Shown here: piece by piece, positions 43,687 through 62,190 of the stretch
How the letters are laid out: the number at the start of each line of letters is the position of its first letter
Position numbering within the stretch: position 1 is the stretch's first letter
Assembly: GCA_964627255.1 (NCBI GenBank)
Contig: CAZVIN010000007.1
Coordinates: 3,051-67,050, forward strand
Direction of reading: 5' to 3'
From: an uncultured Eubacteriales bacterium
GTDB lineage: Bacteria > Acidobacteriota > Aminicenantia > Aminicenantales > CALLJL01
Length of the DNA: 64,000 bases
Program-made: the position numbers and the translations under genes
The notes under the pieces: generated by a model
What the model was told of the DNA's origin: nothing
The model's input: the letters and a program-made list of their open reading frames with translations, nothing else
The model's database searches: none

Positions 43687-44120
43687 TAGAGAAGCTCTTC
43701 TAAAATGTCTATGGAGGAACGAATGAGCTGCGGACAGACGGTCTGAAAAAGCCCTTTAGAATTTGCCAACTCATGTCCGCCCGGGCTTGATAAGTCAATG
43801 CCCAGGAGCTGCCAGCAAAGGAGGGAACCGTTTTTGGCTTGAAAAAGAGAAAAAAATTCTCGCGTCAGAGCATAAGTTTTTTCCCTTGCCGCGTCGTCTT
43901 CGGGCTTCACTTTGCCGTGTTTAAGACCTAAAACCAGCATAGCTCCCGTTACTGCGCCACAAGTCTGACCTGTCCTGGCCATTCCGCCCCCAAAAGCTTG
44001 AGCCAGACGAGAGGCCGATTCTTCGGAAAGGCCCAATTCGCAGGCAAAAGCCAGCAGAACCGATTGAGCGCAATTAAACCCAGTCTGAAAATGTGTCAAA
44101 GCTCTTTCCTGTCGTGTCAT
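43686..44120 (-). CDS. C_GCAxxG_C_C family (putative redox-active) protein
   Basis: 144 aa with a FNCAQSV ... TCGAVTGA ... CWQL ... VCPQL cysteine pattern matching the family. Confidence 0.6.
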   Translation of the reverse strand: MTRQERALTHFQTGFNCAQSVLLAFACELGLSEESASRLAQAFGGGMARTGQTCGAVTGAMLVLGLKHGKVKPEDDAAREKTYALTREFFSLFQAKNGSLLCWQLLGIDLSSPGGHELANSKGLFQTVCPQLIRSSIDILEELL

Positions 44121-44235
44121 TTCTTCCTCTGGTTAATGCCTAGTATATTTAATTTTTTTAATGTTCACTTTCTCTTAAATCACTTAAAAACGAGCCCAAT
44201 AAATAATCAATCGCCAATCAACGAAATAAACAAAG

Positions 44236-44358
<123 letters not shown>

Positions 44359-44529
44359 GCTTCCCTTGGGGCTCCTTGATTATTATATCAGCATCTCAAT
44401 TTGATTGCCTACTTATCTATTTGTTTGCTAACTTATTACTTTTCTTACTTGCTTACCTGATTTCTTATTAAAATCCTTAGTAGCTTATCTATTCCCCTTT
44501 TTATATTTACGATGATATAGAGCGATCCA

Positions 44530-46221: not shown

Positions 46222-47594
46222 CCCTTCGCTTTTTTTATCTTGATTGGTACCAGAGCTTTCTCCATATTAACGCGACCGTAGCCAATAAAGTTATCTTTTC
46301 CCGGGTTTTGGGTAGCGTTGACATCATCGCAGGAATAACGAATGATGTCCATAATCTCCTTAGCTTTTAGCCAGGGCTTAAGGCTTTTAAGAAGAGCCGC
46401 TAAACCCGCCACATGAGGCGCGGCCATGGAGGTTCCAGAGCCATATCCATAAGGGAAAGAATCCGGACCAAAATACCACCGGGGAACTAAGCTGACAATC
46501 CTTACTCCCGGGGCGGCAACATCGACTTCAGGGCCATAATTGGACCACTCCGGCCTGGTGTCGTTATAATCAGTGGCGGCCACCGCTAAGCAATAGCCAT
46601 CATAAGCCGCTGGGTAGAGCACCGGGCCGCTGTCATTGCCGGTGGCGGCCACGACCACAACATTTTTTTCGTAGGCGTAGCGGAGCGCCTCCTTTAAAGT
46701 TTCTGAGGGTTCATCTCCGCCGATACTGAGATTAATTACTCCCACCTTGTTATCAGCAGCCCAGACGATGGCCTCGGCCACCCAGCTATAAAGACCTGAG
46801 CCTTCTTTATCGATGACTTTGACCGGTATAACTGGGCAGTTCCAGGCGACGCCAGCAATGCCCTCGTTATTATCGGTAGCGGCCGTAGCTATCCCCGCAA
46901 CATGGGTACCATGGCCGTGGTCATCAGTAGCGTCAAAATCATTATTAACCAGGTCACGGCCGCTGGAGCGTAATTTGTCCTTAATATCAGGATGAAGCAG
47001 GTCAATACCGCTATCAACGACGGCGATGACCACATCCTTAGAGCCCTTGGTTTCACTCCAGGCCTCGGGGGCGTGAATATCAGCTCGCTGTTTGCCCCGA
47101 GGACTCCCGGGTATGCCTATTTCCTGACCAGAATTATAAAGGGCATATTGGTATTTGAAATAAGTATCATTGGGGGTGACGGTTATTCTAACGTAACCAT
47201 TTGGTTCCGCGAATTCAACGTCAGGGTTGAGACGGAGCAATTCGACCATTTCTCTGACGCTCAATGAAGCTGGGACCTCAATTTGATTGACGTCGAGACG
47301 AGGTATTTTTTTCAAACGTCGCGTCCCATAGAGAGCAATAACGGCGTCGACTCCCGCTTCACTCAAGGTAGGTTTAAACTTGACCAGAACCTCGCCTTCT
47401 TTATAGCGTGGGGTAACAGGGTTAAACGGTTTGCCGGAGTTAAGCTCTGGCAAGTTACGGCTGAAAAATTCTCGCGGTGAGTTAAGTTCTGGTCGGCCTC
47501 TTTCTTGAGCTGGCTGGGGGGCTATCCCCGTAAGGAAGATTATGCTGATCGTTCCCGCCAAAAATATTGCTATATAACGATGAATCTTCATCAT
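46218..47594 (-). CDS. S8 family (subtilisin-like) serine peptidase, secreted, with N-terminal propeptide
   Basis: Signal peptide and an I9-like propeptide. Catalytic triad motifs AVVDSGID, HGTHVAG and GTSMAAPHVAG. Confidence 0.88.
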   Translation of the reverse strand: MMKIHRYIAIFLAGTISIIFLTGIAPQPAQERGRPELNSPREFFSRNLPELNSGKPFNPVTPRYKEGEVLVKFKPTLSEAGVDAVIALYGTRRLKKIPRLDVNQIEVPASLSVREMVELLRLNPDVEFAEPNGYVRITVTPNDTYFKYQYALYNSGQEIGIPGSPRGKQRADIHAPEAWSETKGSKDVVIAVVDSGIDLLHPDIKDKLRSSGRDLVNNDFDATDDHGHGTHVAGIATAATDNNEGIAGVAWNCPVIPVKVIDKEGSGLYSWVAEAIVWAADNKVGVINLSIGGDEPSETLKEALRYAYEKNVVVVAATGNDSGPVLYPAAYDGYCLAVAATDYNDTRPEWSNYGPEVDVAAPGVRIVSLVPRWYFGPDSFPYGYGSGTSMAAPHVAGLAALLKSLKPWLKAKEIMDIIRYSCDDVNATQNPGKDNFIGYGRVNMEKALVPIKIKKAKG

Positions 47595-47601
47595 AGCCTC
47601 C

Positions 47602-48378
47602 TTAGAAAGAGAAAATACCTCTGAGGTTTAAACTCCAGTCGCTGCCGCCCTTATGAGGTAAGTAAGCAGCTTGCCCGCGAAAGGAAAGATGCGAGGAAAA
47701 GATGAAGGTGGCGCCGGCGGAGAGCGAGAATTTAGCCTTAGCTTTAATTTCCTTAGTTTCTTCTCCCGTCAGATTCTCTATCAATTCTCTTAAAATGAAT
47801 TTCCCCGAAAGATAATTATATTGGACAGAAAGAAAGGGGATAAAGTTTTCATAACCCAAGTAGGCTAAAACTGGTCCAGCCGAAAGCTCGTGCCAGCTGG
47901 GAGTACTTTTGAGCTCGCCCTCAACCGCCAGGTCAGGGATGAGCCATTTTTTTTCGCTTCCACTGTAGCTCAAGAAACGGACTTGCCCGCCAACTCCAAA
48001 AGAATCAAAAGGGAAAACCTTGCTCACCTCGGCGCCAAACAATGTGCCTCCTAAGCCGCCTCCCTCGAATTCAATCGAAAACGGCAGCTGTCGGAAGATA
48101 AGACTTTTATAATTAGAAGAGGCATAGCCACCGATGAGAGAAAAAACATAACCGTCGGCAACCTCGGCTTCTAAGCGGAGAGCGGTGAAATAAGAATTAA
48201 GCGGTGTGACTGATTGGGCCTCATCCCAGGTAATATCGCGCTTGAAAATTTCTGCCTCCACACCCAAGCGAAATTGGAAACGAAACGGTTCGGTTGGTGT
48301 CGTCTGCTGGGCGGTAACCAAAGACACCGAACTAAAAAGAAAGAGCCAAAAGAAAAGCACGGTAATAATTTTTTTCAT
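47602..48378 (-). CDS. Outer membrane beta-barrel protein (hypothetical)
   Basis: Signal peptide, alternating amphipathic strands, C-terminal ...GIFSF with a terminal Phe. Confidence 0.6.
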   Translation of the reverse strand: MKKIITVLFFWLFLFSSVSLVTAQQTTPTEPFRFQFRLGVEAEIFKRDITWDEAQSVTPLNSYFTALRLEAEVADGYVFSLIGGYASSNYKSLIFRQLPFSIEFEGGGLGGTLFGAEVSKVFPFDSFGVGGQVRFLSYSGSEKKWLIPDLAVEGELKSTPSWHELSAGPVLAYLGYENFIPFLSVQYNYLSGKFILRELIENLTGEETKEIKAKAKFSLSAGATFIFSSHLSFRGQAAYLPHKGGSDWSLNLRGIFSF

Positions 48379-48388
48379 CCTTGCCTCC

Positions 48389-49204
48389 TCAGGATTTTTT
48401 AGTCGGATTGGCCAAGCTGATTTCTCGCAGACGTTCCTGAGCTTTTTTTGCTAAGGGACTCCGGGGATAATCGCTGACTACTTTGGTGAAATAGGGAAGG
48501 CTTTCCTCTTTTTTTCCCCATTTGTAATAGGAATCAGCCAGATAAAAATAAACTTTATCTAAGCGAGAGTAATTGGGGAAAGTGGTTAAAATTTCCTGAA
48601 AGCGAGTGGTCGAGGCTTTAAAAGCCGAGGTTTTATAATAAAAATAAGCAATGGTGAAATTGTGCTCTGCCAATCTTTCTTCGCATTCTTGAATCCTCTT
48701 CTGCGCTTCCTTAGCTTCTTCGCTGGCTGGATAAAGGGCGACTACCTTTTTAAACTCAGCTAAGGCCTGCCAGGTTTTAGTTTGGTCACGGCCTGGTTTG
48801 AGGGCTTTAAGAAAATAGGTCATGGCAATTTTGAACTGGGCGTAAGAAGCTGAAGGGCTGTAAGGATAGAGAGAAATGAATTCTCGGTATTCGGCCGCGG
48901 CCAGAATCATGCTGCCTTCGTCGCCTTTGGTGAAATAAGAATCAGCAATCGCCAGTTTAGCCCTTTGGGCATAAAAGCTCTTAGGAAAGGAATCAATTAC
49001 CTGCCGAAAATAAAGCCTGGCTTTCTCCGGGTCCTTTTTTAAATACTGCTGGCCTAATTTAAAAAGAGCTTCGTCGGAGGAGGCGATGTCAGGGGAAATC
49101 TCCGTGGTTTTTTTCCCGCAGCTGATGAGGAGTAACAGCAAGCTAAGAGCAAGGCCGAAAACAACCATCAATTTCTCTTTTTTCTGACTGGTATCGACTC
49201 TCAT
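48389..49204 (-). CDS. bamD: Outer membrane protein assembly factor BamD-like TPR lipoprotein
   Basis: Lipobox LLISC and TPR repeats across the mature protein (YfiO/BamD architecture). Confidence 0.7.
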   Translation of the reverse strand: MRVDTSQKKEKLMVVFGLALSLLLLLISCGKKTTEISPDIASSDEALFKLGQQYLKKDPEKARLYFRQVIDSFPKSFYAQRAKLAIADSYFTKGDEGSMILAAAEYREFISLYPYSPSASYAQFKIAMTYFLKALKPGRDQTKTWQALAEFKKVVALYPASEEAKEAQKRIQECEERLAEHNFTIAYFYYKTSAFKASTTRFQEILTTFPNYSRLDKVYFYLADSYYKWGKKEESLPYFTKVVSDYPRSPLAKKAQERLREISLANPTKKS

Positions 49205-49229
49205 AGTTTCACTCTCTAAGGCTTTTCTT

Positions 49230-50171
49230 CTATTCGTATAGTTTTTTTATCCAGTCCCATTCTTGGCGTAAGCCTTCTTTCAGGTCGGTTTGGGGGTTAT
49301 AACCCAAAGCCGCGCTCGCTTTGTCGATAGAAGCCAAGGTATGCGGAACATCACCCTTCTGGGGCTCGAACCATTGAAGCCGCGCCTTTTTGCCCGCGAT
49401 TTCCTCCATTAACAGAATAACTTGGGCCAATTCTTTTTGATGGCCACCACCTATATTATAAGTTTCACCAACCCGGCCTCGTTTCAAAGCCAGGAGATTA
49501 GCCTCGACAATATCGGCGATGAAAGTAAAATCGCGGGTTTGATGGCCATCACCATAAATCGTAATAGTTTCGTCTTTCAAGAGAGAGAGAAAAAACTTGT
49601 GGAAGGCCATATCTGGCCTTTGGCGGGGCCCATAAACCGTAAAGAAACGGAGGGAAATAGTCGGGAGACCATAGTTTTTAAAATAAAGAAAACAGAGCTG
49701 TTCCGAAGCTAATTTGGTTACGCCATAAGGAGAAATGGGAAGAACAGCGCTGGTTTCGAACATCGGGAAAGAAGGACTTATACCATAAACTGAAGAGGAA
49801 GAAGCGAAGATAAACCTGGCAAGCGGCTTATTCTTGGTTGCCTCCAGCAGTTTCTGGGTAGCTTGAATATTATTCTTGAGATAATCAGCAAAATTCTTTC
49901 CCCAGCTCGTCCTCACTCCCGCCTGGGCCGCTAAATGGAAGATCACTTCGACCCCAGCCAGCAGCGAATCCAAGTCAACTTGGCTCAAATCTGCTTCTCT
50001 TAATTGAAAGCGCGGATGGTTAAGAAAGGCTTGAAGATTTCTTTCTTTTATCCAGCGGGGATAAAAATCGGTAAAGCAATCAACGCCGACTACCTCATAA
50101 CCTTCTTCGAGAAGGCGTTCGGCGAGGTGAGAACCGATGAAACCAGCAACCCCGGTTACCAAACACTTCAT
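49230..50171 (-). CDS. NAD-dependent epimerase/dehydratase (extended SDR)
   Basis: 313 aa with VTGVAGFIGSHL and the catalytic YGVTK. Confidence 0.8.
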   Translation of the reverse strand: MKCLVTGVAGFIGSHLAERLLEEGYEVVGVDCFTDFYPRWIKERNLQAFLNHPRFQLREADLSQVDLDSLLAGVEVIFHLAAQAGVRTSWGKNFADYLKNNIQATQKLLEATKNKPLARFIFASSSSVYGISPSFPMFETSAVLPISPYGVTKLASEQLCFLYFKNYGLPTISLRFFTVYGPRQRPDMAFHKFFLSLLKDETITIYGDGHQTRDFTFIADIVEANLLALKRGRVGETYNIGGGHQKELAQVILLMEEIAGKKARLQWFEPQKGDVPHTLASIDKASAALGYNPQTDLKEGLRQEWDWIKKLYE

Positions 50172-50839
50172 TTTGCCTGGCTCCTGCGGGTAATTTCTTT
50201 CATTTGGCCGATAACCTGAGCTGGGTTTTCGTGGCTGAAGATAGTGGCTCCGGCCACAAAGATATTAACCCCGTCTTCGATTAAGCCAGCCATATTCTCC
50301 AAAGTTACTCCCCCATCCACGGCAATCGGTACGTTCAATTTTTGCCCCTGAACCCAGTTATGAAGCAACCGGATTTTATGGCGGGTAGCCTCAATCAGGG
50401 ACTGTCCGCCCCAACCAGGGTTAACCGTCATCAACAGGACGAAGTCAAGTTCTTTTAGAATCTCGGTTAAAATATGAATGGGGGTAGCTGGATTTAAAGC
50501 CAAGCCAGCCTTTAACCCCAGCTCTTTCGCCCGACATATCTCTCGATGGATATGAGGGCTGGCTTCGACGTGGATGGAGACCCAGTCTGCTCCAGCCTGG
50601 TGGAATTGCGGGACAAAATTTTCTGGTTTTTCTACCATTAGATGGACCCAGATTGGCAGGTTGATTATTTTTTTTATTGAGGCTACCAGTTGCGGCCCAA
50701 ATGTCAGGCTAGGTACAAAATGACCGTCCATTATATCTACGTGAAGAAGGTCGGCCCCAGCTGCGGCAGCGGTCTGAGCGGCTTCGCCTAAGCGAGCAAA
50801 ATCGGCGGACAGTAGCGAAGGAGCGATAAGAATACTCAT
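50168..50839 (-). CDS. rpe: Ribulose-phosphate 3-epimerase
   Basis: 223 aa. N-terminus IAPSLLSADF ... HVDIMDGHFVP is typical of Rpe. Confidence 0.93.
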   Translation of the reverse strand: MSILIAPSLLSADFARLGEAAQTAAAAGADLLHVDIMDGHFVPSLTFGPQLVASIKKIINLPIWVHLMVEKPENFVPQFHQAGADWVSIHVEASPHIHREICRAKELGLKAGLALNPATPIHILTEILKELDFVLLMTVNPGWGGQSLIEATRHKIRLLHNWVQGQKLNVPIAVDGGVTLENMAGLIEDGVNIFVAGATIFSHENPAQVIGQMKEITRRSQAK

Positions 50840-51555
50840 TTACTAACCTCCAAGCTGATTAAATTCCTTTTTTGTACTGAATAACCATGAGGGGGCGTTT
50901 GTTTGATTATTATTCCTGATTGCAGCCCAGGATAATAGCTGCTGCGGATGTTGGCGACATTGAACCCGAGATTTTTTAGTTGAGGAACCACCAGGGAAGC
51001 TTTTCGGCCTATTAGGTCAGGCATAACGTATTTTTCCTCCCGTTCTCCCTGGCTGATCAAGAGATTGACCCGGGTCAATCTTTTGACTTTGCCCTCCCCT
51101 GGTTTTGGTTGTTGAGAGATAATTCGTCCTGCCGGGTATTGAGAGGTATGAATCTGGGAGACAAGACCGCGCGTTAGACCGACTGCAGCCAAGATTTGGA
51201 CGGCATTTTCCAGGCTCTTATTAGTCAAGTCAGGAACGTCCACCAGCTCACTTCCGGCCGAAACCGTGACCTTGACAACGCGGTTAGCCTTTATCTTAGA
51301 ACCCGCCGAGGGGTCTTGCGAAATAATCCGTCCCTTTTCTATCTCATCGTGAAATTGCACCTCGGCTAAGCTAAAGGATAAAAGCCGCCGATTTAGCTCC
51401 ATTCTTCCTTCTTCGACTGTCTTTCCCCTAAGGTCAGGAACAGTTACAATTTCGCCCTTGAGAATTAGCCTGGTTGTAAGCAAAGCGCTGCCAAAAAAAA
51501 GAATCAAAGCGGTCAAAAATAGCGTCGCCACCGCAAAGTATTTATCCTTTGGCAT
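50836..51555 (-). CDS. PASTA domain-containing membrane protein (three PASTA repeats, no kinase domain)
   Basis: 239 aa with an N-terminal TM anchor and three repeats of approximately 65 aa, each containing the VPDL/MPDL plus G-K/R PASTA signature. Confidence 0.75.
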   Translation of the reverse strand: MPKDKYFAVATLFLTALILFFGSALLTTRLILKGEIVTVPDLRGKTVEEGRMELNRRLLSFSLAEVQFHDEIEKGRIISQDPSAGSKIKANRVVKVTVSAGSELVDVPDLTNKSLENAVQILAAVGLTRGLVSQIHTSQYPAGRIISQQPKPGEGKVKRLTRVNLLISQGEREEKYVMPDLIGRKASLVVPQLKNLGFNVANIRSSYYPGLQSGIIIKQTPPHGYSVQKRNLISLEVSK

Positions 51556-51674
51556 GAGTAACGCTTTCTTATCAGGCCAGGTTTATCTATACCATATTAA
51601 CATTCAGGTGTAAATCGACCGCTAAATTGAATATAATTAGAGTCTGATAATAATTTTTGGTCAAGGAGTGGAGA

Positions 51675-52709
51675 ATGGAAGGATGGTCTGATTTTCGTAG
51701 CGACACGGTTACGAAGCCAACTGAAGCCATGCGCCGGGCCATGGCTGAGGCGGAAGTGGGAGATGATGTCCTCGGAGATGACCCCACGGTTCAGAAATTA
51801 GAAGCTTTAGCCGCCAGCATCATGGGTAAAGAAGCCGCTCTTTATGTTCCATCGGGGACGATGGGTAATGCCATTGCCGTTAAAGTTTGGACTAAAGAGT
51901 TAGAGGAAGTGATCCTTGAGGCCCGCTGTCATATTTATAACATGGAATCGACTCATTTGACATTTATTTCTCGGGTCAATCCCAGACCTTTGCCCTCATG
52001 GCGAGGGGCTATGGACCCAGAGGAGGTGGCACGCAACATCCGGCAGGCCTCAGTGCATACGCCCCGGACTTCCCTCATCTGCTTAGAAAATACTCATAAT
52101 AACTGGTCAGGAGCAGTTATTCCCCTGGACAACATGAAGGCGATTAGAGAAGTGGCGGACCGCCATGGAGTTAGAGTACATCTCGACGGTGCGAGGATTT
52201 TTAATGCCAGCATCGCTTCAGGTGTTCCAGTCAAAGAATATGCGGGGCTAACTGATTCTATTATGTTTTGTTTATCCAAGGGGCTCTCAGCTCCGGTGGG
52301 GTCGATGTTAGCTGGACCAAAGGAGTTTATTGACCAGGCCCGTCGGCTGCGCAAGGCTCTCGGTGGTGGGATGAGGCAGGCCGGTGTTTTGGCCGCCTGT
52401 GGTTTAATTGCCTTGACCCAAATGGTTGACCGGTTAAGAGAAGACCACGACCGGGCGAAGCGCCTTGCCCGCTCCCTTTCGGCTTTGCCCGGCGTCAGGT
52501 TAAACCCTGAAGAAATAGAGACCAATATTATCATCTTCGGTCTTAATCATCCTCGCTGGACTGTCCCTGCTTTTTTAGCGGAGCTAAAGGCGCGGCGCAT
52601 TTTGGCTCTTCCTGTTTCCAACGGGATTCGTTTCGTTACGCATAAAGATGTCAATGACGCCGATGTCGACCGAGCTCTAGAAGCTTTTAGCGACCTCCTC
52701 AGCCACTAG
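51675..52709 (+). CDS. ltaE: Low-specificity L-threonine aldolase
   Basis: PLP fold-I protein. N-terminus DFRSDTVTKPT is typical of LtaE, and the PLP Lys lies in the SKGL motif. ATG at 51675 after an AAGGAG RBS. Confidence 0.85.
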   Translation: MEGWSDFRSDTVTKPTEAMRRAMAEAEVGDDVLGDDPTVQKLEALAASIMGKEAALYVPSGTMGNAIAVKVWTKELEEVILEARCHIYNMESTHLTFISRVNPRPLPSWRGAMDPEEVARNIRQASVHTPRTSLICLENTHNNWSGAVIPLDNMKAIREVADRHGVRVHLDGARIFNASIASGVPVKEYAGLTDSIMFCLSKGLSAPVGSMLAGPKEFIDQARRLRKALGGGMRQAGVLAACGLIALTQMVDRLREDHDRAKRLARSLSALPGVRLNPEEIETNIIIFGLNHPRWTVPAFLAELKARRILALPVSNGIRFVTHKDVNDADVDRALEAFSDLLSH

Positions 52710-53000
52710 CTGGCGCCAGTTTTTGTCTGGTTGCCTTAGTAGGCTGTCTCTTAATCCTTCGTCCACTAAAAGCGCGGTCCTGATGCCAAACCAATTTAAT
52801 TTTAGGTTGTGTCCCAAGACTACGCGATAGCCGCCGACGTTGGGATAAGTTTTGACGTAACGCAAAGATTATTTAATTAAGTTGAGTTTTTTAAAATATT
52901 AAACTCCCTTTATAGCCACGCCTCAGGACGTTGGCCTACCGAAATCATAGGGAGCGAGCTCTAATAAAAGCTGAATAAGGAGAATAAAATCGAGACAAAA

Positions 53001-55022
53001 TTATTCGGGTAAAGAAGAAGCTAAGAACTGGGTGAGCTCAAGAGCCGCTAACCCTTCCTTTCCCAGGTCTTTGAGACCATCACGCACCATGGTTAGGCAG
53101 AAAGGACAGGTGGTGATTACCGCCTCAGCTTGAGTGGTGGCTATTTCGTCAGCCCGGATACGGTTAATCCGTTGGCCTAATTTTTCTTCAGTCCACATCA
53201 AACCGCCGCCCGCGCCGCAGCAGAAGCCGTGCTCTTGTCGCCGCGGCAACTCTTTTAGCTTCACTCCTGGGATAGAGCGAAGTAAGTAACGAGGTTCAGC
53301 AATCAAGTGGTGGTGGCGAGCATAATAACAGGAGTCATGTAACGTTATCGGCGTTTCCCTCGTTGTTCCCTTAAAAGAGATTTTGCCTTCGTCGACCAAA
53401 AAAGTTAAAAGTTCTAAATGCGAAACTACCTGAATTCGGCTCAGAAATTCTCTATCGCTGGCGGACATATCGGTAAAAATCGAGAGCAGACGAGGGTACT
53501 CATATTTGAGCGTGTGGTAGCCATGGGGACAGAAGACGAGAATTTTTTTAACTCGATATTGACTGAAAAGCTCGAGATTCTGACGGGCCAGAGCCTGAAA
53601 AAGATATTCGTTGCCTAAGCGACGGGCGGCGTCGCCACAACATTTTTCTTCTTCGCCCAAGATGGCAAAATTCACCCCCGCTTGTCGGAGCAGACGAACC
53701 ATGGCTCTTGAAATTGCCTGACCCAGTTCATCAAAAGAACCAGCGCAGCCAACAAAAAATAGCCACTCCGCCTCAGGATTTTCAGCCAGGCGAGGGACTT
53801 TTTCTTTTTCGGCCCATTCCCCGCGGCGGGAAAAACCAATGCCCCAGGGATTAGCGTTCGTTTCGAGGTGGCGAAAGAAACTGTTGAGTTCAGTCGGGAA
53901 CCGGCTTTCCATCAGAACCTGAGCCTGTCTTAAACCAAAAATCTTGGTCAAATGTTCAATTTCTACCGGGCAAACATGCATGCAAGCCCCACAAGTTGTG
54001 CAGGTCCAAAGCTCGTCGGGCTTTATGACTTCCGGGACTATGGCGGGCAATTTTTCTCGATTTTTCTTATGAATCGGAAAATAAGAGCTGAGCAAATGAC
54101 GTTCGAGGTTATAAATAATCATTTTGGGCGAGAGAGGCTTGCCAGAGAGGAAAGCAGGACAGACATCCTGACATCGGCCGCATTCGATGCAAGCAAAAGC
54201 ATCGAGACAATCTTTCCATGTCAAGTCGAGAGCCTTTTCTATCCCATAGACCTCAGTCTTTTCTAAGTTTATAGGTTCTATTTCACCCGGGCTTGTTTCG
54301 CGGTGAAAAAGCAAGTTAAAGGGACCAGCAAACATGTGAAAATACTTGGAGTGGGGGACATAGGCGATAAAAGCGTAGACAATGACAAGATGAAGCCACC
54401 AGGAAAGATGCAGAAGGGAAGAAGGTTGGTTGGCTGTCGCTCCAGCTCCCAAAAAGAAGCGACTGAGAAAAGGGCCGAGGAAGGAAAAACGAAGTTGTTC
54501 AGGCTGGTGGAGATATTTGCAGGCCTCAAAAAAAAGATAGCTCAGGGTTGTGGCCAGAAGAAAAAAATAGATAATGGCCGAGTCCAGAGCAGAAGTCCTC
54601 AGGGCCCGAGGTCGAAAAAGAAAGCGGCGAAGAGCTAAATAAATTGCTGCCGTAAGAACCACCAGGGCCATAAAATCGATCAGGCCGGAGACGATATCTT
54701 CTGCTAAGCCGTGACCGAAGAGGGAAAAACCGCTGAGAAAACCTTCCAGAGTATGGTTAACCGTCATGGTATCAAAGGTCAGTGCGGCATAAAAGAGGCC
54801 GGCGTGAATTATCCCTGTTCCTAAGCGTTCATTTTTCAAAGTACAGCGCTGGAGAAAAACCAGGCTGAGCACGCGCCAAAAACGACGGCCAAGATTATTT
54901 GTTCTCTCCACCGTTTTGGCGCTGCGGATAATTTGATAGCGGCGATAAACAGGATGGAAGAAGGCGCCGACGGTGATTATAACTAGGAGAGATAGAATAA
55001 TTTTTTCGATAATTGAAAGCAT
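53001..55022 (-). CDS. HdrE/HdrD-like (DsrMK-like) membrane-bound Fe-S oxidoreductase
   Basis: 673 aa. N-terminal approximately 250 aa form a polytopic membrane domain with conserved His (NarI/HdrE-like). Two 4Fe-4S ferredoxin motifs (CIECGRCQDVCP, CTTCGACMHVCP) and two CCG domains (CCGDAARR, CCGAGGG). Confidence 0.8.
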   Translation of the reverse strand: MLSIIEKIILSLLVIITVGAFFHPVYRRYQIIRSAKTVERTNNLGRRFWRVLSLVFLQRCTLKNERLGTGIIHAGLFYAALTFDTMTVNHTLEGFLSGFSLFGHGLAEDIVSGLIDFMALVVLTAAIYLALRRFLFRPRALRTSALDSAIIYFFLLATTLSYLFFEACKYLHQPEQLRFSFLGPFLSRFFLGAGATANQPSSLLHLSWWLHLVIVYAFIAYVPHSKYFHMFAGPFNLLFHRETSPGEIEPINLEKTEVYGIEKALDLTWKDCLDAFACIECGRCQDVCPAFLSGKPLSPKMIIYNLERHLLSSYFPIHKKNREKLPAIVPEVIKPDELWTCTTCGACMHVCPVEIEHLTKIFGLRQAQVLMESRFPTELNSFFRHLETNANPWGIGFSRRGEWAEKEKVPRLAENPEAEWLFFVGCAGSFDELGQAISRAMVRLLRQAGVNFAILGEEEKCCGDAARRLGNEYLFQALARQNLELFSQYRVKKILVFCPHGYHTLKYEYPRLLSIFTDMSASDREFLSRIQVVSHLELLTFLVDEGKISFKGTTRETPITLHDSCYYARHHHLIAEPRYLLRSIPGVKLKELPRRQEHGFCCGAGGGLMWTEEKLGQRINRIRADEIATTQAEAVITTCPFCLTMVRDGLKDLGKEGLAALELTQFLASSLPE

Positions 55023-55033
55023 CCGCCCTCCTC

Positions 55034-55897
55034 TCAGAAGGGGACAGCAATTCCCCAGATAATTTTATGGAATGATTGTTGGTTACCGAGCTGACTCATA
55101 GCTATGTCTTTCCAGAAACCACCTCCTAAGGAAAGCTCTAACCAGCGAGCCACCTTGAGCCGCAAGATCAAGTCGAGGAGAAGGCTCTGGCCCCGGGCCA
55201 AAAGAACAGCGCTCTGGAAAATAGCCTGGAAACTCACGATAGCTTCAGGGGTTAAAGCTACACCCAACCGGGCTCCATACTCTTGTTTGAGCTTTTCTCC
55301 CGAAAAGTCGAGATAGGCTCGCTGGTTGGTGTGGTGAAAAAACCAGATAAAGGGCTCAAATAAAATGCGGTCAGAGGAAAAGCTCAAGCCAAACCCAAAG
55401 TAGTTGCGGTTTAAATAATAAGGTTTTCCATGCTGATAACTTACATGGTCGGAGTCATGGTTGCTGTCGTGGCCGATGATCAGAAGAAAATTCCGGCCGA
55501 TAAATTGCCGAAGCGAAAAATGCCAGTCAAACTTAGTGCGATTATGGCCGTCATCATGGGTAATAAGCTGAGCTAAAAGGGAGGTGCTTCTTGTCAAGTC
55601 CAGATAATTTTGGAAGCCAAAGTTCCAGCGGTCCTCGGGGCCGCTGAGGTCGTTAAAGCTCGGAAAATTGGCCGGCAAAAGAAGCGAGGCAAAAAATTCG
55701 CCTCTGGGGTCAAGCCGGCCGGTTTCAAGTAAGGATATCTTTTCCTGCTGCGGTCGATAAATAAAAATGGGCTGGGCCAGAATATGGGCAGGGATAAAAA
55801 ATAACATAAGCAATAGCCATGTGAGAGGGATAGTGAAGTTAATTTTGAAATTATTGCAATCTAACCTGGAGCCTATTTTTATCATCTTTTCATTCAT
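55034..55897 (-). CDS. His-rich outer membrane beta-barrel protein (hypothetical)
   Basis: Signal peptide and His clusters (HDDGHNRTKFDWHF, GHDSNHDSDHVSYQHG, FFHHTN). C-terminal ...GIAVPF. The 5' end lies within the (AATG)n tract, so the true start may be the downstream Met (MIKIGS). Confidence 0.6.
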   Translation of the reverse strand: MNEKMIKIGSRLDCNNFKINFTIPLTWLLLMLFFIPAHILAQPIFIYRPQQEKISLLETGRLDPRGEFFASLLLPANFPSFNDLSGPEDRWNFGFQNYLDLTRSTSLLAQLITHDDGHNRTKFDWHFSLRQFIGRNFLLIIGHDSNHDSDHVSYQHGKPYYLNRNYFGFGLSFSSDRILFEPFIWFFHHTNQRAYLDFSGEKLKQEYGARLGVALTPEAIVSFQAIFQSAVLLARGQSLLLDLILRLKVARWLELSLGGGFWKDIAMSQLGNQQSFHKIIWGIAVPF

Positions 55898-55946
55898 TCA
55901 TTCATTCATTCATTCATTCATTCATTCCACCCACCCACCAACCAAC
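55891..55946. repeat. Compound tetranucleotide microsatellite: (CATT)9-(CCAC)3-(CAAC)2 (plus strand)
   Basis: Read directly. On the minus strand it reads (AATG)9 and contains the annotated ATG of the His-rich OMP gene. Lies between the TonB-dependent receptor stop and the OMP start. Confidence 0.95.
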
Positions 55947-56161
55947 CGTTAATTCATTCAACTATCCATCCACCTACCTACGAACCTAATTAATTTCCCA
56001 ACTAGCTACTAATTTTTTTCTTTCCTCTCTTAACTTAATGCTATTACTACCACCACTTCTACTTTTGCTAATGCTACCATTACACCCATTAATGCTACCA
56101 TAACTAATACTTCTTGCTTTTAGTTATTTCATCCCACCTCGCTCATTTAGTTTCGCTTATA

Positions 56162-58981
56162 CTAAAATTCAATCTTTAATCCAAGGCGGAAAACCCGCGG
56201 CGACTGGATTTCTGTGGCGAAACGCAAGGGAAATTGCGGCGACGTCCATTCGTTTTCTTCTGTTGCCAAGTGTTGGTTAAAAATATTATATCCTTCGATA
56301 AAAAGCGAGCTTCTTGTGCCTAAAAGGGACCAAGTCTTTTCCAGCCGGAAATCAACGGTCAGGTTGAATTCATAGCGGGCAATGCCCCGTGGGAAAGCTT
56401 GAATGATCACCGGACCCTGTCTTAGGCCGGTGACAATTATTTTCCGGCTAAAGGGCTGGCCGTCGTAGTATTTGAAAATAAAACCAGCCCTAAAATCGGC
56501 TGGAAGAAAAAGGCTAAAACCTAACCGGGCAGTATAGGCTCGGTCAAACCTCAGTCTCCCTCGGGCGTTAACGAGAGAATTGGGGTCATCATAGAGCCAG
56601 CCTATTACGGCCTCGTCATTTTCCCATTCGGTGTTACCTGGACTCGTAGTGCCGAAAGCTTCAGTCGCGGTAAAAGAAAAAAAGAAAATGTGCTTGGTGA
56701 ATCGGCGCAAGACAGTAAGGTCGAGACCACGATAGCGGGAGCTGCGCTCGGTCAAGTTGGGATTGCTCAGCTCAAAAAAATCCCGGCCCAATGCCTGCGG
56801 AAGTCGGTTATAAATGATAAAGCTCAGGTCATCGTGAGTTCCCCAGATGCGGTCATCGCCGCTATCATTGAGCGTGAACGTTTCAAAGGCCGATTCCGGC
56901 ACGCCGATATTTTCCGTTTCCACCAAGTTACGGGTTGTCCGGTGAAAGCCACTTAGCGAAAGATAGAATTCTCGGCTCAGCCTGTAGATAAAACTAACGG
57001 CATATTCGGTCATGACCGGACGGCGAAGGTTAGAATCCAGCCGAGAAAAAAAAGGTCCTTCTCGCCTTAGTAAAGGACCGAGTTCTCCTTCGTCAAATTT
57101 ATAATTTAAATTGCGGTCAAGCCAAGCATAAATCAAGGCTCCTTCGGCTGCGGCGTTTCCCCATCGCAGATAATTAAGAGGAAGACAAAAAGCTGACTGG
57201 CCGAAAAAGAACTTCAGCGAGCCCTTTTTCCCGTCGCTGAAGGGAACAGTTAGGCTGGCCCGAGGCAAAAGGCTGAGCCAGTCAAGGCGCGCCGCCGAGG
57301 TGCTGGTAAACCCGCCCCAACTCCTCTTTGGAGAAGGCGGTTGACTCCAACCTCGAGTCAGAATCAACTTGGCGCCCATGCCAAGAAGAAAGTGGCGCGA
57401 AATTTTCCAACTATCTTCTATATAAAGGCTGATATCAAGGGAGTTGTCTAATTCCCTGGAAACAGGCGCAAAGAACGCTACCAGGGCCGGCTGGCCTTCG
57501 AGAAACAGCAGATGGGTTGAGCCTGGAATCTGAAGCTCTGAGGAATAAAAGCGTCGAGAAACTTCAAGCCCGAAGCTGGCCAAATGGATTGAACCTGACG
57601 GGAAGTTTATCAGCCAATTACCGTTGACTTGAAAATTCAGATGGCCTTGCGTCTCGTCTCCATATCTTAGCGGCGCTTGCCAGACAACTGGGCGAAAGAG
57701 CTCTCGGCAGGGAATTAAAGAAGGACTGACGTAGGGGTCAGATGATATTTTTTGATAGGCTAAACTTAAGCCAGAATGAAAGGAGAGTTGAGCTGAAGGG
57801 AGGGATTGCCAGAATAATTGCGCGACATGAAAATTACGTTGGGCTCTGGTTGTGGCTTCTGGGGCCATTTTTCGTCGCGCCCCCGCTTCTGCCTCGCTGG
57901 CTTGCTGACCTGTCCAAAAAAAACTCAGCTCCCCCCGGGAAGTAGCTTGGTCAAGCCTGATTAGCCCAGAAAGAAGGCGACTTTGATTATGGCCAATATA
58001 ATCAGCTATGTGGCGGCTTAAATCCTGAGAAAAAAAACTGAGATAGAAGCGACGATTTTCAGAAGCCAGAGGACCGGAGAGCCAGAGTCTAAGCTTTCGG
58101 TCGTGAAGAAAAGTATGGGCATCAGTCAGCCCCTCTTTTTCTAAGGCCGGGGTGATGTTGGAGGTTGTCAACCCTGGTTCAATTAGCGTATAGCTTGTCC
58201 CACCCTGAAAGCGGCTGGCACCTCTTTTTGTGGCCATCTCGATCCTTCCTCCAGGGGAAGCGGCTGAAGCCGGATGAAGACTGTTTCGATGACGAATTGC
58301 CTCCACCGTCTGGAGGTCCGGAAGAAAAAGAGGCGTTCCGCCAAAATAGGGCTCGGTAACATTAAACCCGTTAAGGCGAAATTCATTCTGCGTCCAGGAG
58401 GTGGCGCCACGGGCGCTAAATAATGCTGGAGAATCAGCCCAGAGACCTCCAGAGTCAATGCGGTTAGTGGTAGCCGATAAATCCTGGTTTTCGATTATCG
58501 ACCAAAGATTATCGGCTGAGGGAAGGAGCGAAAGCTGGAAGCCGTTAACAACGGTTTGGGCCCCAATATCAGCAAAGTCGTATTTTTCCACTAAGGGTGG
58601 GCGAGTGGAATCAGAAAATTTGAATTCAAGCTGCAGAAACTGAGCTGGTTCAAGCTTTATTTCCTCTTTCCATTCTCTTTTGTTTGCCAGCTTTAGTGTG
58701 AGATTGTAATTCCCTGGGCTTAATCCAAGCCATATTAAATGACCAGCAGAATCAGGACAGCCAACCAACGGCGAGGTCAAGAAAGAAGCTTCGAGCCAGA
58801 CCGTTACTTCCGAGGAGGGCAAGGTTAAGCCCAAAAATTTAAGGTGAAGTGACGAGTTATTCTGAGCCGCCGCTGAAGAGATTAAGCAGAGAACCGATAA
58901 ATGGACGCAAAACCACGCTTGACGAAAAGGCTTTTTCGGACGGGAAAGGCGTCCGTTTGAATTTTTCTTCATATTAAGCAC
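56162..58981 (-). CDS. TonB-dependent receptor with N-terminal carboxypeptidase-regulatory-like domain
   Basis: 939 aa with a signal peptide, a CarbopepD_reg-like N-terminal domain, a plug domain, and a long beta-barrel ending in ...GLKIEF (terminal Phe). Confidence 0.8.
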   Translation of the reverse strand: MLNMKKNSNGRLSRPKKPFRQAWFCVHLSVLCLISSAAAQNNSSLHLKFLGLTLPSSEVTVWLEASFLTSPLVGCPDSAGHLIWLGLSPGNYNLTLKLANKREWKEEIKLEPAQFLQLEFKFSDSTRPPLVEKYDFADIGAQTVVNGFQLSLLPSADNLWSIIENQDLSATTNRIDSGGLWADSPALFSARGATSWTQNEFRLNGFNVTEPYFGGTPLFLPDLQTVEAIRHRNSLHPASAASPGGRIEMATKRGASRFQGGTSYTLIEPGLTTSNITPALEKEGLTDAHTFLHDRKLRLWLSGPLASENRRFYLSFFSQDLSRHIADYIGHNQSRLLSGLIRLDQATSRGELSFFWTGQQASEAEAGARRKMAPEATTRAQRNFHVAQLFWQSLPSAQLSFHSGLSLAYQKISSDPYVSPSLIPCRELFRPVVWQAPLRYGDETQGHLNFQVNGNWLINFPSGSIHLASFGLEVSRRFYSSELQIPGSTHLLFLEGQPALVAFFAPVSRELDNSLDISLYIEDSWKISRHFLLGMGAKLILTRGWSQPPSPKRSWGGFTSTSAARLDWLSLLPRASLTVPFSDGKKGSLKFFFGQSAFCLPLNYLRWGNAAAEGALIYAWLDRNLNYKFDEGELGPLLRREGPFFSRLDSNLRRPVMTEYAVSFIYRLSREFYLSLSGFHRTTRNLVETENIGVPESAFETFTLNDSGDDRIWGTHDDLSFIIYNRLPQALGRDFFELSNPNLTERSSRYRGLDLTVLRRFTKHIFFFSFTATEAFGTTSPGNTEWENDEAVIGWLYDDPNSLVNARGRLRFDRAYTARLGFSLFLPADFRAGFIFKYYDGQPFSRKIIVTGLRQGPVIIQAFPRGIARYEFNLTVDFRLEKTWSLLGTRSSLFIEGYNIFNQHLATEENEWTSPQFPLRFATEIQSPRVFRLGLKIEF

Positions 58982-59174
58982 ACCAAAAGTCGCTCTATTT
59001 TTTCTACTTTAAGCCTGTCCTGTCAAGAAAAGGTTTATTGTTTTGGGCTAATTTTTGGCCGCTCTGGATATATTTCTTTATGAGGACCGCCTGGTGATTC
59101 TCGATATCAATTTGACTCGCTGGCCGAAATGATAAATTATGATTGCCGTTGATTTAAAACGGAGGCCAGAAAAC

Positions 59175-60578
59175 ATGGAGAAGAGAGAAAAAGTTGATAT
59201 AGTCATAATCGGGGCTGGTCCGGGTGGCTATGTGGCCGCTTTGCGCGGGTCTCAGCTAAAAAAGAAAGTGGCGTTAATAGAAGAGGATAAAGTAGGTGGA
59301 ACCTGTACCAATTATGGTTGTATTCCCACTAAATTTCTTCTTCACGAGACGCAGGTTTTAACCGAAGCCAGGCGGTCACCAAGAATAAAAGGAAAAGAAG
59401 TTCTACAGTTTGACTGGGCCGAAGCCCAGAAAACTCGTCAGAGTGTTATTGACCGGTTAGTCAAAGGAATCGAGTTTCTTCTCGAAAAAAATGGGGTGAA
59501 GCTAATTAAAGGTAAAGCCAGGTTTGGGGATAAGCGTCTGATAAGTGTCATTACCCCGGAGGAGGAAATTCTGATTGAGGCCGAAAAAGTTATCCTGGCT
59601 ACTGGAAGTCGGTCCGCTGACTTAAGCTGTCTCCAAGCCGACGGTCGGAAGATATTGACCAGCCGGGAGGCTTTAGAGTTAAAGGAACCGCCGTCGCGCT
59701 TAATCATTATCGGTGCCGGAGCGATAGGCTTAGAAATGGGGTCTATTTTTTCGCGGGTCGGGACAAAGGTTATTATCCTGGAGATTCTACCCAGACTTCT
59801 TCCTGGTTCAGACCGGCAGTTGACTGAGAGGTTAGGTCGGTTTTTGAAACGCCAGGGAATTGAAATCCAGACAGAGATGAGGGTTGAAAAGGCAGAAGTC
59901 GCATCGGGTGGAGTTAAGTTGAGTGGCACCTGTCTTAAGACTAATTCGCCTTTCAGCCTCGAAGCTGACCTGGTTCTTTTAGCCGCCGGCCGGCGACCAA
60001 ATTCAGAAATTGTCAGGGATGTCGATTCCCGTCTCTGTGGCCCGGGTGGTTTTGTCCAAGTCAACCAATTTCTTGAGACAGCCTGGAAAGATGTCTATGC
60101 GGTTGGCGACCTTATTGGCGGGAAATTATTAGCTCATAAAGCCATGCATGAAGGAATCCTGGCGATGGAAAACGCCTCTGGAGCGCAACAGGTTTTAGAA
60201 CCCCAGACCATTCCCCTTGCCGTTTTCACTGACCCCGAACTGGCTGCGGTTGGCTGGACGGAAGAAGAAGCCCAAGAGATGGGGCTACGGCCAAGGGTAG
60301 GCGTTTTTCCGCTGCAGGCGAGCGGCCGAGCTTTAGCCATGGGAAAAACTGAGGGGCTGGTGAAAGTTGTGGCTGACGAAGCTGGCAAGATAGTTGGTGC
60401 CCACATTCTTTCCCCTTCGGCCTCTGAGATGATTGGCGAAATGACCTTGGCGGTACGGTTTGGGCTAAAACTGGAAGATATTGGCCGGACAATTCATGTC
60501 CATCCGACTTTGTCCGAAGCCCTTTCAGAAGTTAGCCTGAAGGCAATGAACCACGCCCTGCATTTGCTCAATGAATAA
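59175..60578 (+). CDS. lpdA: Dihydrolipoyl dehydrogenase
   Basis: FAD motif GAGPGGY, redox disulfide GGTCTNYGCIPTK, NAD motif GAGAIGLE, and C-terminal dimerisation His. ATG at 59175 after GGAGG. Confidence 0.9.
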   Translation: MEKREKVDIVIIGAGPGGYVAALRGSQLKKKVALIEEDKVGGTCTNYGCIPTKFLLHETQVLTEARRSPRIKGKEVLQFDWAEAQKTRQSVIDRLVKGIEFLLEKNGVKLIKGKARFGDKRLISVITPEEEILIEAEKVILATGSRSADLSCLQADGRKILTSREALELKEPPSRLIIIGAGAIGLEMGSIFSRVGTKVIILEILPRLLPGSDRQLTERLGRFLKRQGIEIQTEMRVEKAEVASGGVKLSGTCLKTNSPFSLEADLVLLAAGRRPNSEIVRDVDSRLCGPGGFVQVNQFLETAWKDVYAVGDLIGGKLLAHKAMHEGILAMENASGAQQVLEPQTIPLAVFTDPELAAVGWTEEEAQEMGLRPRVGVFPLQASGRALAMGKTEGLVKVVADEAGKIVGAHILSPSASEMIGEMTLAVRFGLKLEDIGRTIHVHPTLSEALSEVSLKAMNHALHLLNE

Positions 60579-60651
60579 ATTAGGAAACTAATATTTCTCT
60601 TACCTCTGCTGCGGATAAAGCAAGGACTTGGTCGGGATGGCCTCGCTCCCG

Positions 60652-62190
60652 TTAAAGTTTTTCGCGGCGCTTCGTTTTTATTAAATTGTGCACACTTTTC
60701 TCTCTCATTAGCCTTTGGATATCAGCAATTTCTTTCGGCGCGCGGGCGGACAGAATCTCATTTCCGTTTTCAGTGATTAGAATATCATCTTCTATGCGAA
60801 CTCCAAAGCCGGCATAGCGAGCATAGACTGGGGCTACTTTTTTCTGGAAAGCCTCAATTTCAGCTTCCGGCACTTTCCCTTTGAGGGATTCAAGATAGGT
60901 CTCAACCCTTTTTTCAGGGAAGTAGAGGCCTGGTTCCATAGTCATGACCATGCCCGGCTTCATGACAACTTTATCTAAACGCGGTCCGTGCCAACTCCAG
61001 GCATCATGGACATCAAGGCCAATGCCGTGACCAAAGCCGTGTTGAATATAAAGACGTCTCTGCCAGGGACTATTAACATCCGTTACCAGACCCAGCTTTT
61101 CCAGGCCAGCCAGCAGAATTTTTTCCACCTCATCCTGGACGGCTTTAAAGGTGACGCCGGCGACAAGGCGGCGGCAACCTTCTTTTTGGGCTTGCAGCAC
61201 AAGTTCATAAATTTCTCGCTGCTCCTTGGTGAACCGGCCGCTGGCGGGAATGGTGCGGCTGACATCTGACGTGTATCCCCTGATATAAGCCCCAACATCA
61301 AAGACAATCATGTCACGGCCCATTAATTCCCGAGAAGTGGCTCCAAAGTGAATGTTGGTTGAATTGGGACCTGAGGCTACTTGAAGGAAGGATTCCTTAG
61401 TTTCTTGTCGATTAAAAATATATTTGATGATGGCGGCCAGGTCTATTTCCCGCATTCCAGCTTCAGCCGCTCGGTAGGCCTCGTTAAGAGCTTCGGTCGT
61501 TAAATCAACGGCCTTACGCAAAGCTTGAATTTCATCATCGTCCTTGGTCAGACGCATCTCCAGTAAAAGGGGGTCTAAATTAAAAAGGGCTTCGGCTTGG
61601 GCCAAAGGTTGGACTAAACCGAAGGTTCTGGAGAGGAAATCTAAATCGGAAAAGGGGAGGAAAAGCCGGCAGGGCTGATTAGCTGAGGACCGCAGAAAGG
61701 GTGAGAACTCTTCCATAGGCTTGATTATTATCGGCGGGCCTTCTTTGGTTTGAGTTTGACCGGAGGCTTTTTCAAGTAACCTTGATTCTCTGTCTTCTTC
61801 TAAAATTTCTGATGGTCCCGCCAGAGCTGAAGCCGCTCTTGGTCTTGGGGGTTGGGGCCGAAAAAGAATGGCTCTCGGAACTTCTGCTCCTTCTATAACC
61901 AGCACCGCTTCGGGTTCGTGTAGTCCTGTAAGGTAAAAGAAGTTGAGGTTTTCCCTTAGACCCTGGCGGCTCATAAACTGCGAGGGAATTATGACCAGGC
62001 TATTGGGGTGTCTCTCTATTAGTCTGGCCCGGCGGGAAGCATAAAGAGGTGAATCACCTATTTCCCGCGATGGGGTGAGCTGTTCCAGTTGTCGTTTTTC
62101 TCCAAGTTCCTCTGACGATGAAGAGTTTAAAATGCTAAGCGTAAGGATAGAAAATATTATTAATAAAATTGTCTTTTTATATGGAAGCAT
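60652..62190 (-). CDS. M24 family Xaa-Pro aminopeptidase, secreted
   Basis: 512 aa with a signal peptide, an AMP_N-like N-domain carrying an insertion, and a C-terminal pita-bread metal-ligand pattern (D..D..HGFGHGIGLDVHD..E..E). AGGAGG RBS. Confidence 0.82.
   Translation of the reverse strand: MLPYKKTILLIIFSILTLSILNSSSSEELGEKRQLEQLTPSREIGDSPLYASRRARLIERHPNSLVIIPSQFMSRQGLRENLNFFYLTGLHEPEAVLVIEGAEVPRAILFRPQPPRPRAASALAGPSEILEEDRESRLLEKASGQTQTKEGPPIIIKPMEEFSPFLRSSANQPCRLFLPFSDLDFLSRTFGLVQPLAQAEALFNLDPLLLEMRLTKDDDEIQALRKAVDLTTEALNEAYRAAEAGMREIDLAAIIKYIFNRQETKESFLQVASGPNSTNIHFGATSRELMGRDMIVFDVGAYIRGYTSDVSRTIPASGRFTKEQREIYELVLQAQKEGCRRLVAGVTFKAVQDEVEKILLAGLEKLGLVTDVNSPWQRRLYIQHGFGHGIGLDVHDAWSWHGPRLDKVVMKPGMVMTMEPGLYFPEKRVETYLESLKGKVPEAEIEAFQKKVAPVYARYAGFGVRIEDDILITENGNEILSARAPKEIADIQRLMREKSVHNLIKTKRREKL

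Follow-up and report, generated by a model that had tools for sequence, protein, structure and literature searches.

The 64-kb window analyzed here (the whole 64,000-nt stretch of contig CAZVIN010000007.1, from an uncultured Aminicenantes bacterium) carries on its minus strand a perfect tetranucleotide tract, (AATG)9, which takes in the putative start codon of a gene for a predicted His/Asp-rich outer-membrane protein (OMP) of 287 amino acids (aa). The tract lies between this gene and an upstream gene whose product looks outer-membrane-like, and a gene for an HdrD-like oxidoreductase follows downstream. All coordinates are positions in the window in plus-strand numbering, with the minus strand written as (-), and those of the features are collected in Table 1. 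Tandem Repeats Finder placed the repeat at 55889-55927 (period 4, 9.8 copies, 100% matches), and a regular expression applied to the minus strand found exactly (AATG)9 at 55891-55926, with the flanks ...GGTGGGTGGGTGG and AAAAGATGATAAAAATAGG. The minus-strand text reads ...ACGG TTGG TTGG TGGG TGGG TGG (AATG)9 AAAAG ATG ATA AAA ATA GGC..., and on the plus strand the tract is adjoined by (CCAC)3 at 55927-55938 and then by (CAAC)2 at 55939-55946. A preliminary description of this DNA had reported the (AATG)9 followed by AAAAG ATG, the adjoining (CCAC)3(CAAC)2 and an annotated start codon in the penultimate repeat unit, and our searches agree with it on all of this, the longest open reading frame (ORF) being 55034-55897. 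The tract is far beyond chance length, since the longest tetranucleotide run in 200 simulated windows (first-order Markov model) was 4 units, against the 9 perfect units observed.

Two in-frame ATG codons could start the OMP gene, one inside the tract (ATG#1) and one just downstream of it (ATG#2). The length of one 283-aa member of the protein cluster of a sister lineage (~90% nucleotide identity to the window species) fits a start at ATG#2, and a look-up of the 283-aa product beginning with MIKIGS returned no record for the window species. The other ATGs of the tract had been described as opening mini-ORFs of the form ATG AAT GAA TGA; this is correct for units 1-7, each of which opens such a frame, while the last unit opens ATG AAA AGA TGA instead. 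Each of the three frames of the tract contains TGA. Followed to the 3' end of the tract, one frame enters the ORF from ATG#1, a second ends on an ATGA overlap with ATG#2, and the third stops 4 nt before ATG#2. The ATGA stop/start overlap is also found in the sister lineage (as ATG AGA TGA), where it is kept across a 3-nt indel. A 61-aa ORF on the plus strand (55767-55952) crosses the complementary (CATT)n as FIHSFIHS... (FIHSFIHSFIHS), antisense to the OMP gene start, which it overlaps on the opposite strand; it was taken as most likely a shadow ORF.

The copy number of the tract was followed through exact-protein look-ups of other contigs coding for the identical 287-aa product, which brought the full-length alleles recovered to two; exact-pattern scans of metagenome and genome contig collections for the tract plus its 3' flank gave no match. 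Contig Ga0185342_1000254 of JGI sample 3300017449 aligns with window positions 50501-60972 (10.5 kb) and differs from them only by one 8-nt gap (0 mismatches), having (AATG)11 where the window has (AATG)9. The gene call on this 11-unit contig gives the identical 287-aa product; therefore, copy number leaves the protein unaffected, as had been proposed. The coding sequence escapes the change because TGA closes every frame of the tract and because the two candidate starts keep a fixed position relative to its 3' end. In other samples the tract interrupts the assembly: JGI 3300010284 is broken inside it from both sides, a Logan contig (SRR5216256) begins inside it, and a contig of ENA ERZ27245602 (whose name indicates k = 141) terminates inside it. 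Since a tract of 36-44 nt is shorter than a k-mer of 141, these breaks are most simply read as mixed tract lengths within a sample. As an assembly control, two records of one sister strain (L170 and L008, from different metagenome records) are 100% identical over 4861 nt, arrays included, and no chimeric join was indicated, since every relative with flanks that we read has this gene order. The AATG tract is a hypermutable, slippage-prone microsatellite with a copy number that differs in nature, and the length polymorphism suspected in the preliminary description is real (9 versus 11 units in otherwise identical DNA, not an invariant repeat number).

Table 1. Features of the window around the AATG tract and the second array (plus-strand numbering)
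Feature	Position	Strand	Remarks
Perfect (AATG)9 tract	55891..55926	(-)	Tandem Repeats Finder and regular expression; 11 units in the allele of JGI sample 3300017449
Compound flank (GGTT)2(GGTG)3 G, sense strand	55927..55947	(-)	Array of the sister lineage starts at the same boundary
ATG#1, start of the longest ORF (MNEK...)	55895..55897	(-)	In the penultimate unit; start of the JGI gene call
ATG#2, alternative start (MIKIGS...)	55883..55885	(-)	In frame, 12 nt downstream of ATG#1
Mini-ORF ATG AAA AGA TGA	55882..55893	(-)	From the last tract ATG; stop overlaps ATG#2 as ATGA
Lineage-specific spacer, 264 nt	55898..56161	(-)	Sense-strand C 4.5%
Block conserved with the sister lineage, TAGTAGCT.GTTGG..AATTAATTA...TAGGTAGG...ATGGATA.TTGAAT.AATT.AC	55948..56013	(-)	Adjoins the arrays on their upstream side
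23-codon ORF in the spacer, MVALMGVMVALAKVEVVVVIALS	56030..56101	(-)	Conserved
Predicted His/Asp-rich outer-membrane beta-barrel gene, 287 aa, MNEKMIKIGS...	55034..55897	(-)	C-terminus ...WGIAVPF
Upstream gene, 939 aa, outer-membrane-like	56162..58981	(-)	936 aa in the JGI call; ends ...GLKIEF
CCG/4Fe-4S (HdrD/DsrK/TfrB-like) oxidoreductase gene, 673 aa, NarI-like membrane domain	53001..55022	(-)	GGAGG site
Second, compound array (CAGA)8(TAGA)6 CAGA (TAGA)6 ...(TTGA)8, sense strand	44220..44357	(-)	Polymorphic between samples
Promoter-like site TAGGCA-18-TG.TATAAT	44382..44411	(-)	Conserved in the sister lineage

In the sister lineage, a compound tetranucleotide array of ~215 nt (versus 60-68 nt in the window species) occupies the same position between the same conserved flanks, reading (GTAG)8(ACAG)5(ATAG)8...(AGTT)8(GATT)7(GGTT)6 and then GGATGAATGAG ATG. 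It holds only two AATG-type units, its main units being of types such as GTTA, GATT and GGTT, and a second sister strain, 98.9% identical, has (GTTA)10(GTTG)7 instead. From these alignments, the presence and position of a tetranucleotide array are conserved between the window species and its sister, and the unit sequence, the array length and the ATG content are not. The load of ATG-rich upstream ORFs, through which repeat number had been suggested to act, is thus not a shared property, as only two units of that type are found in the sister array. The (AATG)n itself looks like the expansion of a two-unit seed, ATGAATGA, that stands next to the start in both lineages.

Among 158 loci (869 kb), perfect repeats of at least 20 nt were found only in the window species and its sister, and the ~150 other Aminicenantes loci are without them. 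In two distant Aminicenantes loci (L014 and L015), the large and the small OMP genes overlap (...GAATTCTGA / ATGAATTC...), with the stop of ...YEF* lying over ATGAAT/ATGAGT at ~3090-3110 in L014 and ~2995-3010 in L015. This overlap explains the common MNS/MNF/MSS N-termini of the small-OMP family and, as far as gene layout can tell, indicates an ancestral operon with translational coupling. Closer relatives (64-73% protein identity) have spacers of ~50-150 nt, and the long repeat-bearing spacer is restricted to the window species and its sister.

This spacer has an extreme composition. Stretches in which any base falls below 8% in 200-nt windows occur only at 55824-56198 and 44094-44367 in the whole 64 kb, the latter around a second array described below, and the depleted base in both is G on the plus strand, that is, C on the sense strand. 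Sense-strand C amounts to 4.5% and 9.5% in the two spacers, versus 24.7% overall, and the depletion reaches past the repeat arrays; it could be due to selection for an unstructured leader or to transcription-linked deamination. A search of 55500-56500 for an intrinsic terminator found a terminator-like site only inside the OMP gene, and the same region has no sigma-70-like hexamer pair, although the sigma-70 model may not be the promoter type of this host. An effect of repeat number on promoter-to-start spacing, the other route that the preliminary description had suggested, is therefore hypothetical at this tract. An Rfam scan of 43900-56400 (E <= 1) found no riboswitch or known leader RNA. 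The predicted fold of the 302-nt leader is nearly unstructured (minimum free energy [MFE] of -35.2 kcal/mol, z-score 0.10), with no hairpin involving the repeats, and neither the MFE nor the centroid structure pairs the AATG tract. GGAGG is found at more than half of the starts of this genome, and no Shine-Dalgarno sequence precedes the OMP gene at either ATG#1 or ATG#2. Just upstream of the arrays, the conserved block that the sister lineage shares is a candidate promoter or regulatory block. The conserved 23-codon ORF of the spacer is also without a Shine-Dalgarno site; its sister counterpart, MVAVIWVMVALVKVEVLVAIALI, is equally long and ends at the same stop, the differences being 5 synonymous and 7 conservative ones (hand count), and the ORF may encode a small, hydrophobic peptide or else a leader peptide.

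The second array lies between recN and a C_GCAxxG_C_C redox gene (43686-44120), which is followed by a MiaB-like gene. The promoter-like site conserved in the sister lineage has a perfect extended -10 and stands ~25 nt upstream of the array; the array is thus likely to lie in a 5' untranslated region (UTR). Samples of the window species differ in this array, and nine sister-lineage contigs coding for an identical 144-aa protein carry nine different arrays; the whole recN spacer measures 485, 592 and 712 nt in the three contigs that span it. The preliminary description had tied the repeats to surface-protein genes, a tie that does not hold: they are not specific to that class, because this second, similar array precedes a cytoplasmic redox/tRNA-modification gene pair. 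A mobile element shared by both spacers was considered and rejected, as only the repeat units are alike (sister array at the first locus versus window array at the second). No further array was found within 10 kb beyond each window end (20 kb), which makes two loci in ~84 kb. In the sister-lineage allele L164 (ENA ERZ27296003, ~1400-1850), a cytochrome c assembly gene replaces recN upstream of the second array and the spacer also has a run of ~ten GAA units, an arrangement that suggests a rearrangement at a repeat-bearing spacer. In L162 and L167 (JGI 3300010938 and 3300003891), the arrays that precede the 144-aa gene are bridged by N runs, and numerous contigs from both lineages stop at arrays; assemblies of this lineage fragment systematically there.

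The 287-aa protein has no family in Pfam, NCBIfam or PDB sequence searches. It has 340 homologs, the few with a source name being hypothetical proteins of Candidatus Aminicenantes or Acidobacteriota, and most genome-collection loci of the family come from bins labelled Aminicenantes; by homology, it belongs to an unnamed family of Aminicenantes and related metagenome bins. When 29 members are aligned, they show a signal-peptide-like N-terminus, the invariant His/Asp motifs THDDG, GHDSNHDSDH and FFHHTNQR, and a conserved C-terminus, WGIAIPF (...WGIAVPF in the window protein), with a terminal aromatic residue. The AlphaFold2 model is a closed barrel of ~14 strands (mean pLDDT 80.5), for which the top Foldseek match was the copper outer-membrane protein PcoB (7pge; E 1.5e-7), with OMPLA and porins ranking next. 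The product thus combines a signal-peptide-like N-terminus, a modelled closed antiparallel barrel and a C-terminal aromatic residue, as expected of an outer-membrane beta-barrel, and its naming as a His-rich OMP is supported at the fold level because of the barrel model and these matches; it is a predicted beta-barrel with a PcoB-like fold.

The sole Pfam match of the 939-aa product of the upstream gene is OMP_b-brl_4, below threshold (20.6 bits versus a cut-off of 30), and there was no match in NCBIfam or among PDB sequences. The plug and TonB_dep_Rec barrel that define a TonB-dependent receptor were not found by profile and sequence searches; the protein looks outer-membrane-like and may still have a receptor-like fold, and its identity as such a receptor is not confirmed. 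The tract had been placed between a TonB-dependent receptor and an OMP, of which the OMP stands, as a predicted barrel, and the receptor is not confirmed, given the sub-threshold match. Downstream, the HdrD-like gene starts 11 nt after the OMP gene and is probably co-transcribed with it. The order of the OMP and HdrD-like genes is common to the window species and the sister lineage, and a membrane redox protein is an unusual partner for a His-rich PcoB-like barrel.

In the intragenic loci of Haemophilus influenzae, such as licA and lic2A (CAAT) and hgp (CCAA), the repeats stand within the coding region, past the start codon, and switch the frame. The AATG tract resembles them in being tetranucleotide, slipped-strand, associated with an envelope gene and close to alternative starts (see also PMC2651432), but it is located upstream and closed in every frame, and its length cannot alter the product. 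More comparable is uspA2 of Moraxella catarrhalis, with an (AGAT)n repeat in its 5' UTR that ranges from 6 to 23 copies between strains and has a graded effect (Attia and Hansen 2006, cited in PMC4679880; PMC7302503). There too a tetranucleotide repeat of variable copy number precedes an outer-membrane protein ORF and leaves the protein unaffected, and the AGAT/GATA unit also occurs in the sister-lineage array and in the second array of the window. However, the uspA2 tract lies 132 bp upstream of its ORF, whereas the AATG tract touches and includes the start codon; the transcript start and expression effects of uspA2 have been measured, while the AATG locus is known from sequence alone; the host of uspA2 is a human pathogen, as opposed to an uncultured bacterium known from metagenome assemblies; and the Aminicenantes arrays are compound and far more variable. 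The (ATCTTTC)n repeat of H. influenzae hmw1A is intergenic and transcribed in the leader, with expression scaling with repeat number (PMC12721329), which is the kind of copy-number-dependent leader repeat that we propose for the AATG tract. The hmw1A unit is a heptamer, though, and needs a long RNA hairpin cut by RNase III (PMC12721329), whereas the AATG leader is predicted to be unstructured; a hairpin of this type was rejected because the leader folds without one involving the repeats, the tract being unpaired. In marine Beggiatoaceae, intergenic TAACTGA heptamer arrays at ~169 loci have been proposed to have a posttranscriptional role (PMC4679880). They share with the present arrays the position of short tandem repeats upstream of start codons, the presence at several loci and an environmental, nonpathogenic host, but theirs is one conserved heptamer, while the Aminicenantes units are heterogeneous and fast-evolving, at two loci in ~84 kb.

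The explanation that we favor, at roughly even odds, is that the tract is a slippage microsatellite in a probably transcribed spacer, where it would give graded changes in the expression of the OMP/HdrD-like pair. AATG units would be gained and lost by slipped-strand mispairing at the 3' end of a C-depleted, lineage-specific spacer that seems to have replaced an ancestral overlap of two co-oriented OMP genes. The tract is probably transcribed together with the upstream gene, because no terminator was found after that gene and the orthologs in L014 and L015 overlap. It would also form the translation-initiation region of the OMP gene, since there is no Shine-Dalgarno sequence in a genome that uses GGAGG, the leader is predicted to be unstructured and the tract unpaired. 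As RNA, it would string three-codon AUG AAU GAA UGA cistrons head to tail in each of the three frames, and two of these chains would lead to a candidate start, one into ATG#1 and the other to the ATGA at ATG#2. Copy number would then act through the leader length and the number of AUGs in the tract, giving graded rather than on/off expression of the OMP and the HdrD-like protein, a control that we infer to be analogous to those of the uspA2 (AGAT)n and of hmw1A.

Several points weigh against graded control. The 30 nt that precede the start are the same in the 9-unit and the 11-unit allele; the local initiation context would thus be buffered, and a change of a few units may have little effect. 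The sister lineages differ in the sequence of the units and in the length of the array, and the AUG content in particular shows no visible selection. A similar array precedes cytoplasmic, housekeeping-type genes at the second locus. The full-length alleles of the tract number just two, contigs may break for reasons other than heterogeneity, and the graded regulatory role is one that we infer.

Nearly as likely as graded control are neutral dynamics, in which the spacer is unconstrained, the lineage is prone to slippage, arrays turn over with no selected effect and the contact with the start codon is incidental. Unit type and length differ between the sisters as this would predict, adjacent blocks are one substitution apart, as expected of mutation followed by slippage, and the ~150 other Aminicenantes loci do without such a repeat. 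The array upstream of the C_GCAxxG_C_C/MiaB-like pair fits as well, with its nine forms among nine contigs of identical 144-aa protein and its recN spacer of three different lengths. However, long tetranucleotide runs are very rare in bacteria, arrays have been kept at the same boundaries in two lineages ~10% apart in nucleotide sequence, and an array-less allele was recovered at neither locus. The spacers also have conserved flanking blocks, including the extended -10 site at the second locus, and in this window the extreme strand-specific depletion of C is found only at both of them. Moreover, the tract is the sole sequence available as an initiation region for a gene devoid of a Shine-Dalgarno site.

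A classical on/off phase switch as in Haemophilus or Neisseria, by a frameshift or by a changed -35/-10 spacing, has in its favor that the tract is a polymorphic tetranucleotide repeat adjoining an outer-membrane gene, and the preliminary description had likened its geometry to the Haemophilus tracts. Those lie inside the ORF and switch its frame, whereas this one lies upstream of, or at, the start codon and outside the ORF interior. Frameshift switching of the OMP gene is excluded, as TGA in the three frames permits no read-through and the predicted 287-aa product is identical with 9 and 11 units. A role as promoter spacer is unlikely because 36-44 nt plus the compound flank are too long and no sigma-70-like hexamer pair flanks them (55500-56500), so that a switch of either kind is, on the whole, very improbable. 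Even less probable is an assembly artefact or chimeric join behind the tract or behind the difference between 9 and 11 units. It is true that several assemblies break at the tract and that N runs bridge the longer arrays of the second locus in some scaffolds. Against this, both a read and the k of 141 given in the ENA contig names exceed the tract in length, it is present in JGI, ENA and Logan assemblies, both of its flanks are collinear with the sister lineage and the distant Aminicenantes read, and two metagenome records of one sister strain give identical arrays.

Graded control of the OMP/HdrD-like pair, if correct, could extend further. This lineage may use fast-evolving compound tetranucleotide microsatellites in several operon leaders to generate heritable, reversible diversity of expression, as contingency-like loci outside host-adapted bacteria, and here the AUG/UGA-only tract, in replacing the ancestral ATGA coupling, could offer ribosomes a tunable track for landing and for termination-reinitiation at a gene without a Shine-Dalgarno site. 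We put this forward as a speculation that is rather unlikely.

Long, fast-changing tetranucleotide repeats are a textbook trait of host-adapted pathogens (Haemophilus, Neisseria and Moraxella), in which they generate cell-surface diversity. Repeat slippage and repeats upstream of ORFs are already known; what is unusual here is that the tract includes the start codon, replaces an ancestral gene overlap and sits in an unusual lineage. Within the literature library that was searched, no paper was found pairing Aminicenantes with phase variation or simple sequence repeats. For those working with metagenomes, the practical warning is that assemblies of this lineage break at the repeat sites. A mutational device of the pathogen type is thus seen varying in public metagenomes of an uncultured candidate-phylum bacterium, at no fewer than two loci and between conserved flanks. 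If tract length has no effect on expression, this would still be a clear case of eukaryote-like microsatellite dynamics in a bacterial genome. If tract length does have such an effect, repeat slippage would be a means of bet-hedging in uncultured environmental bacteria as well, and the tracts would be natural strain markers and candidates for population-level expression studies.

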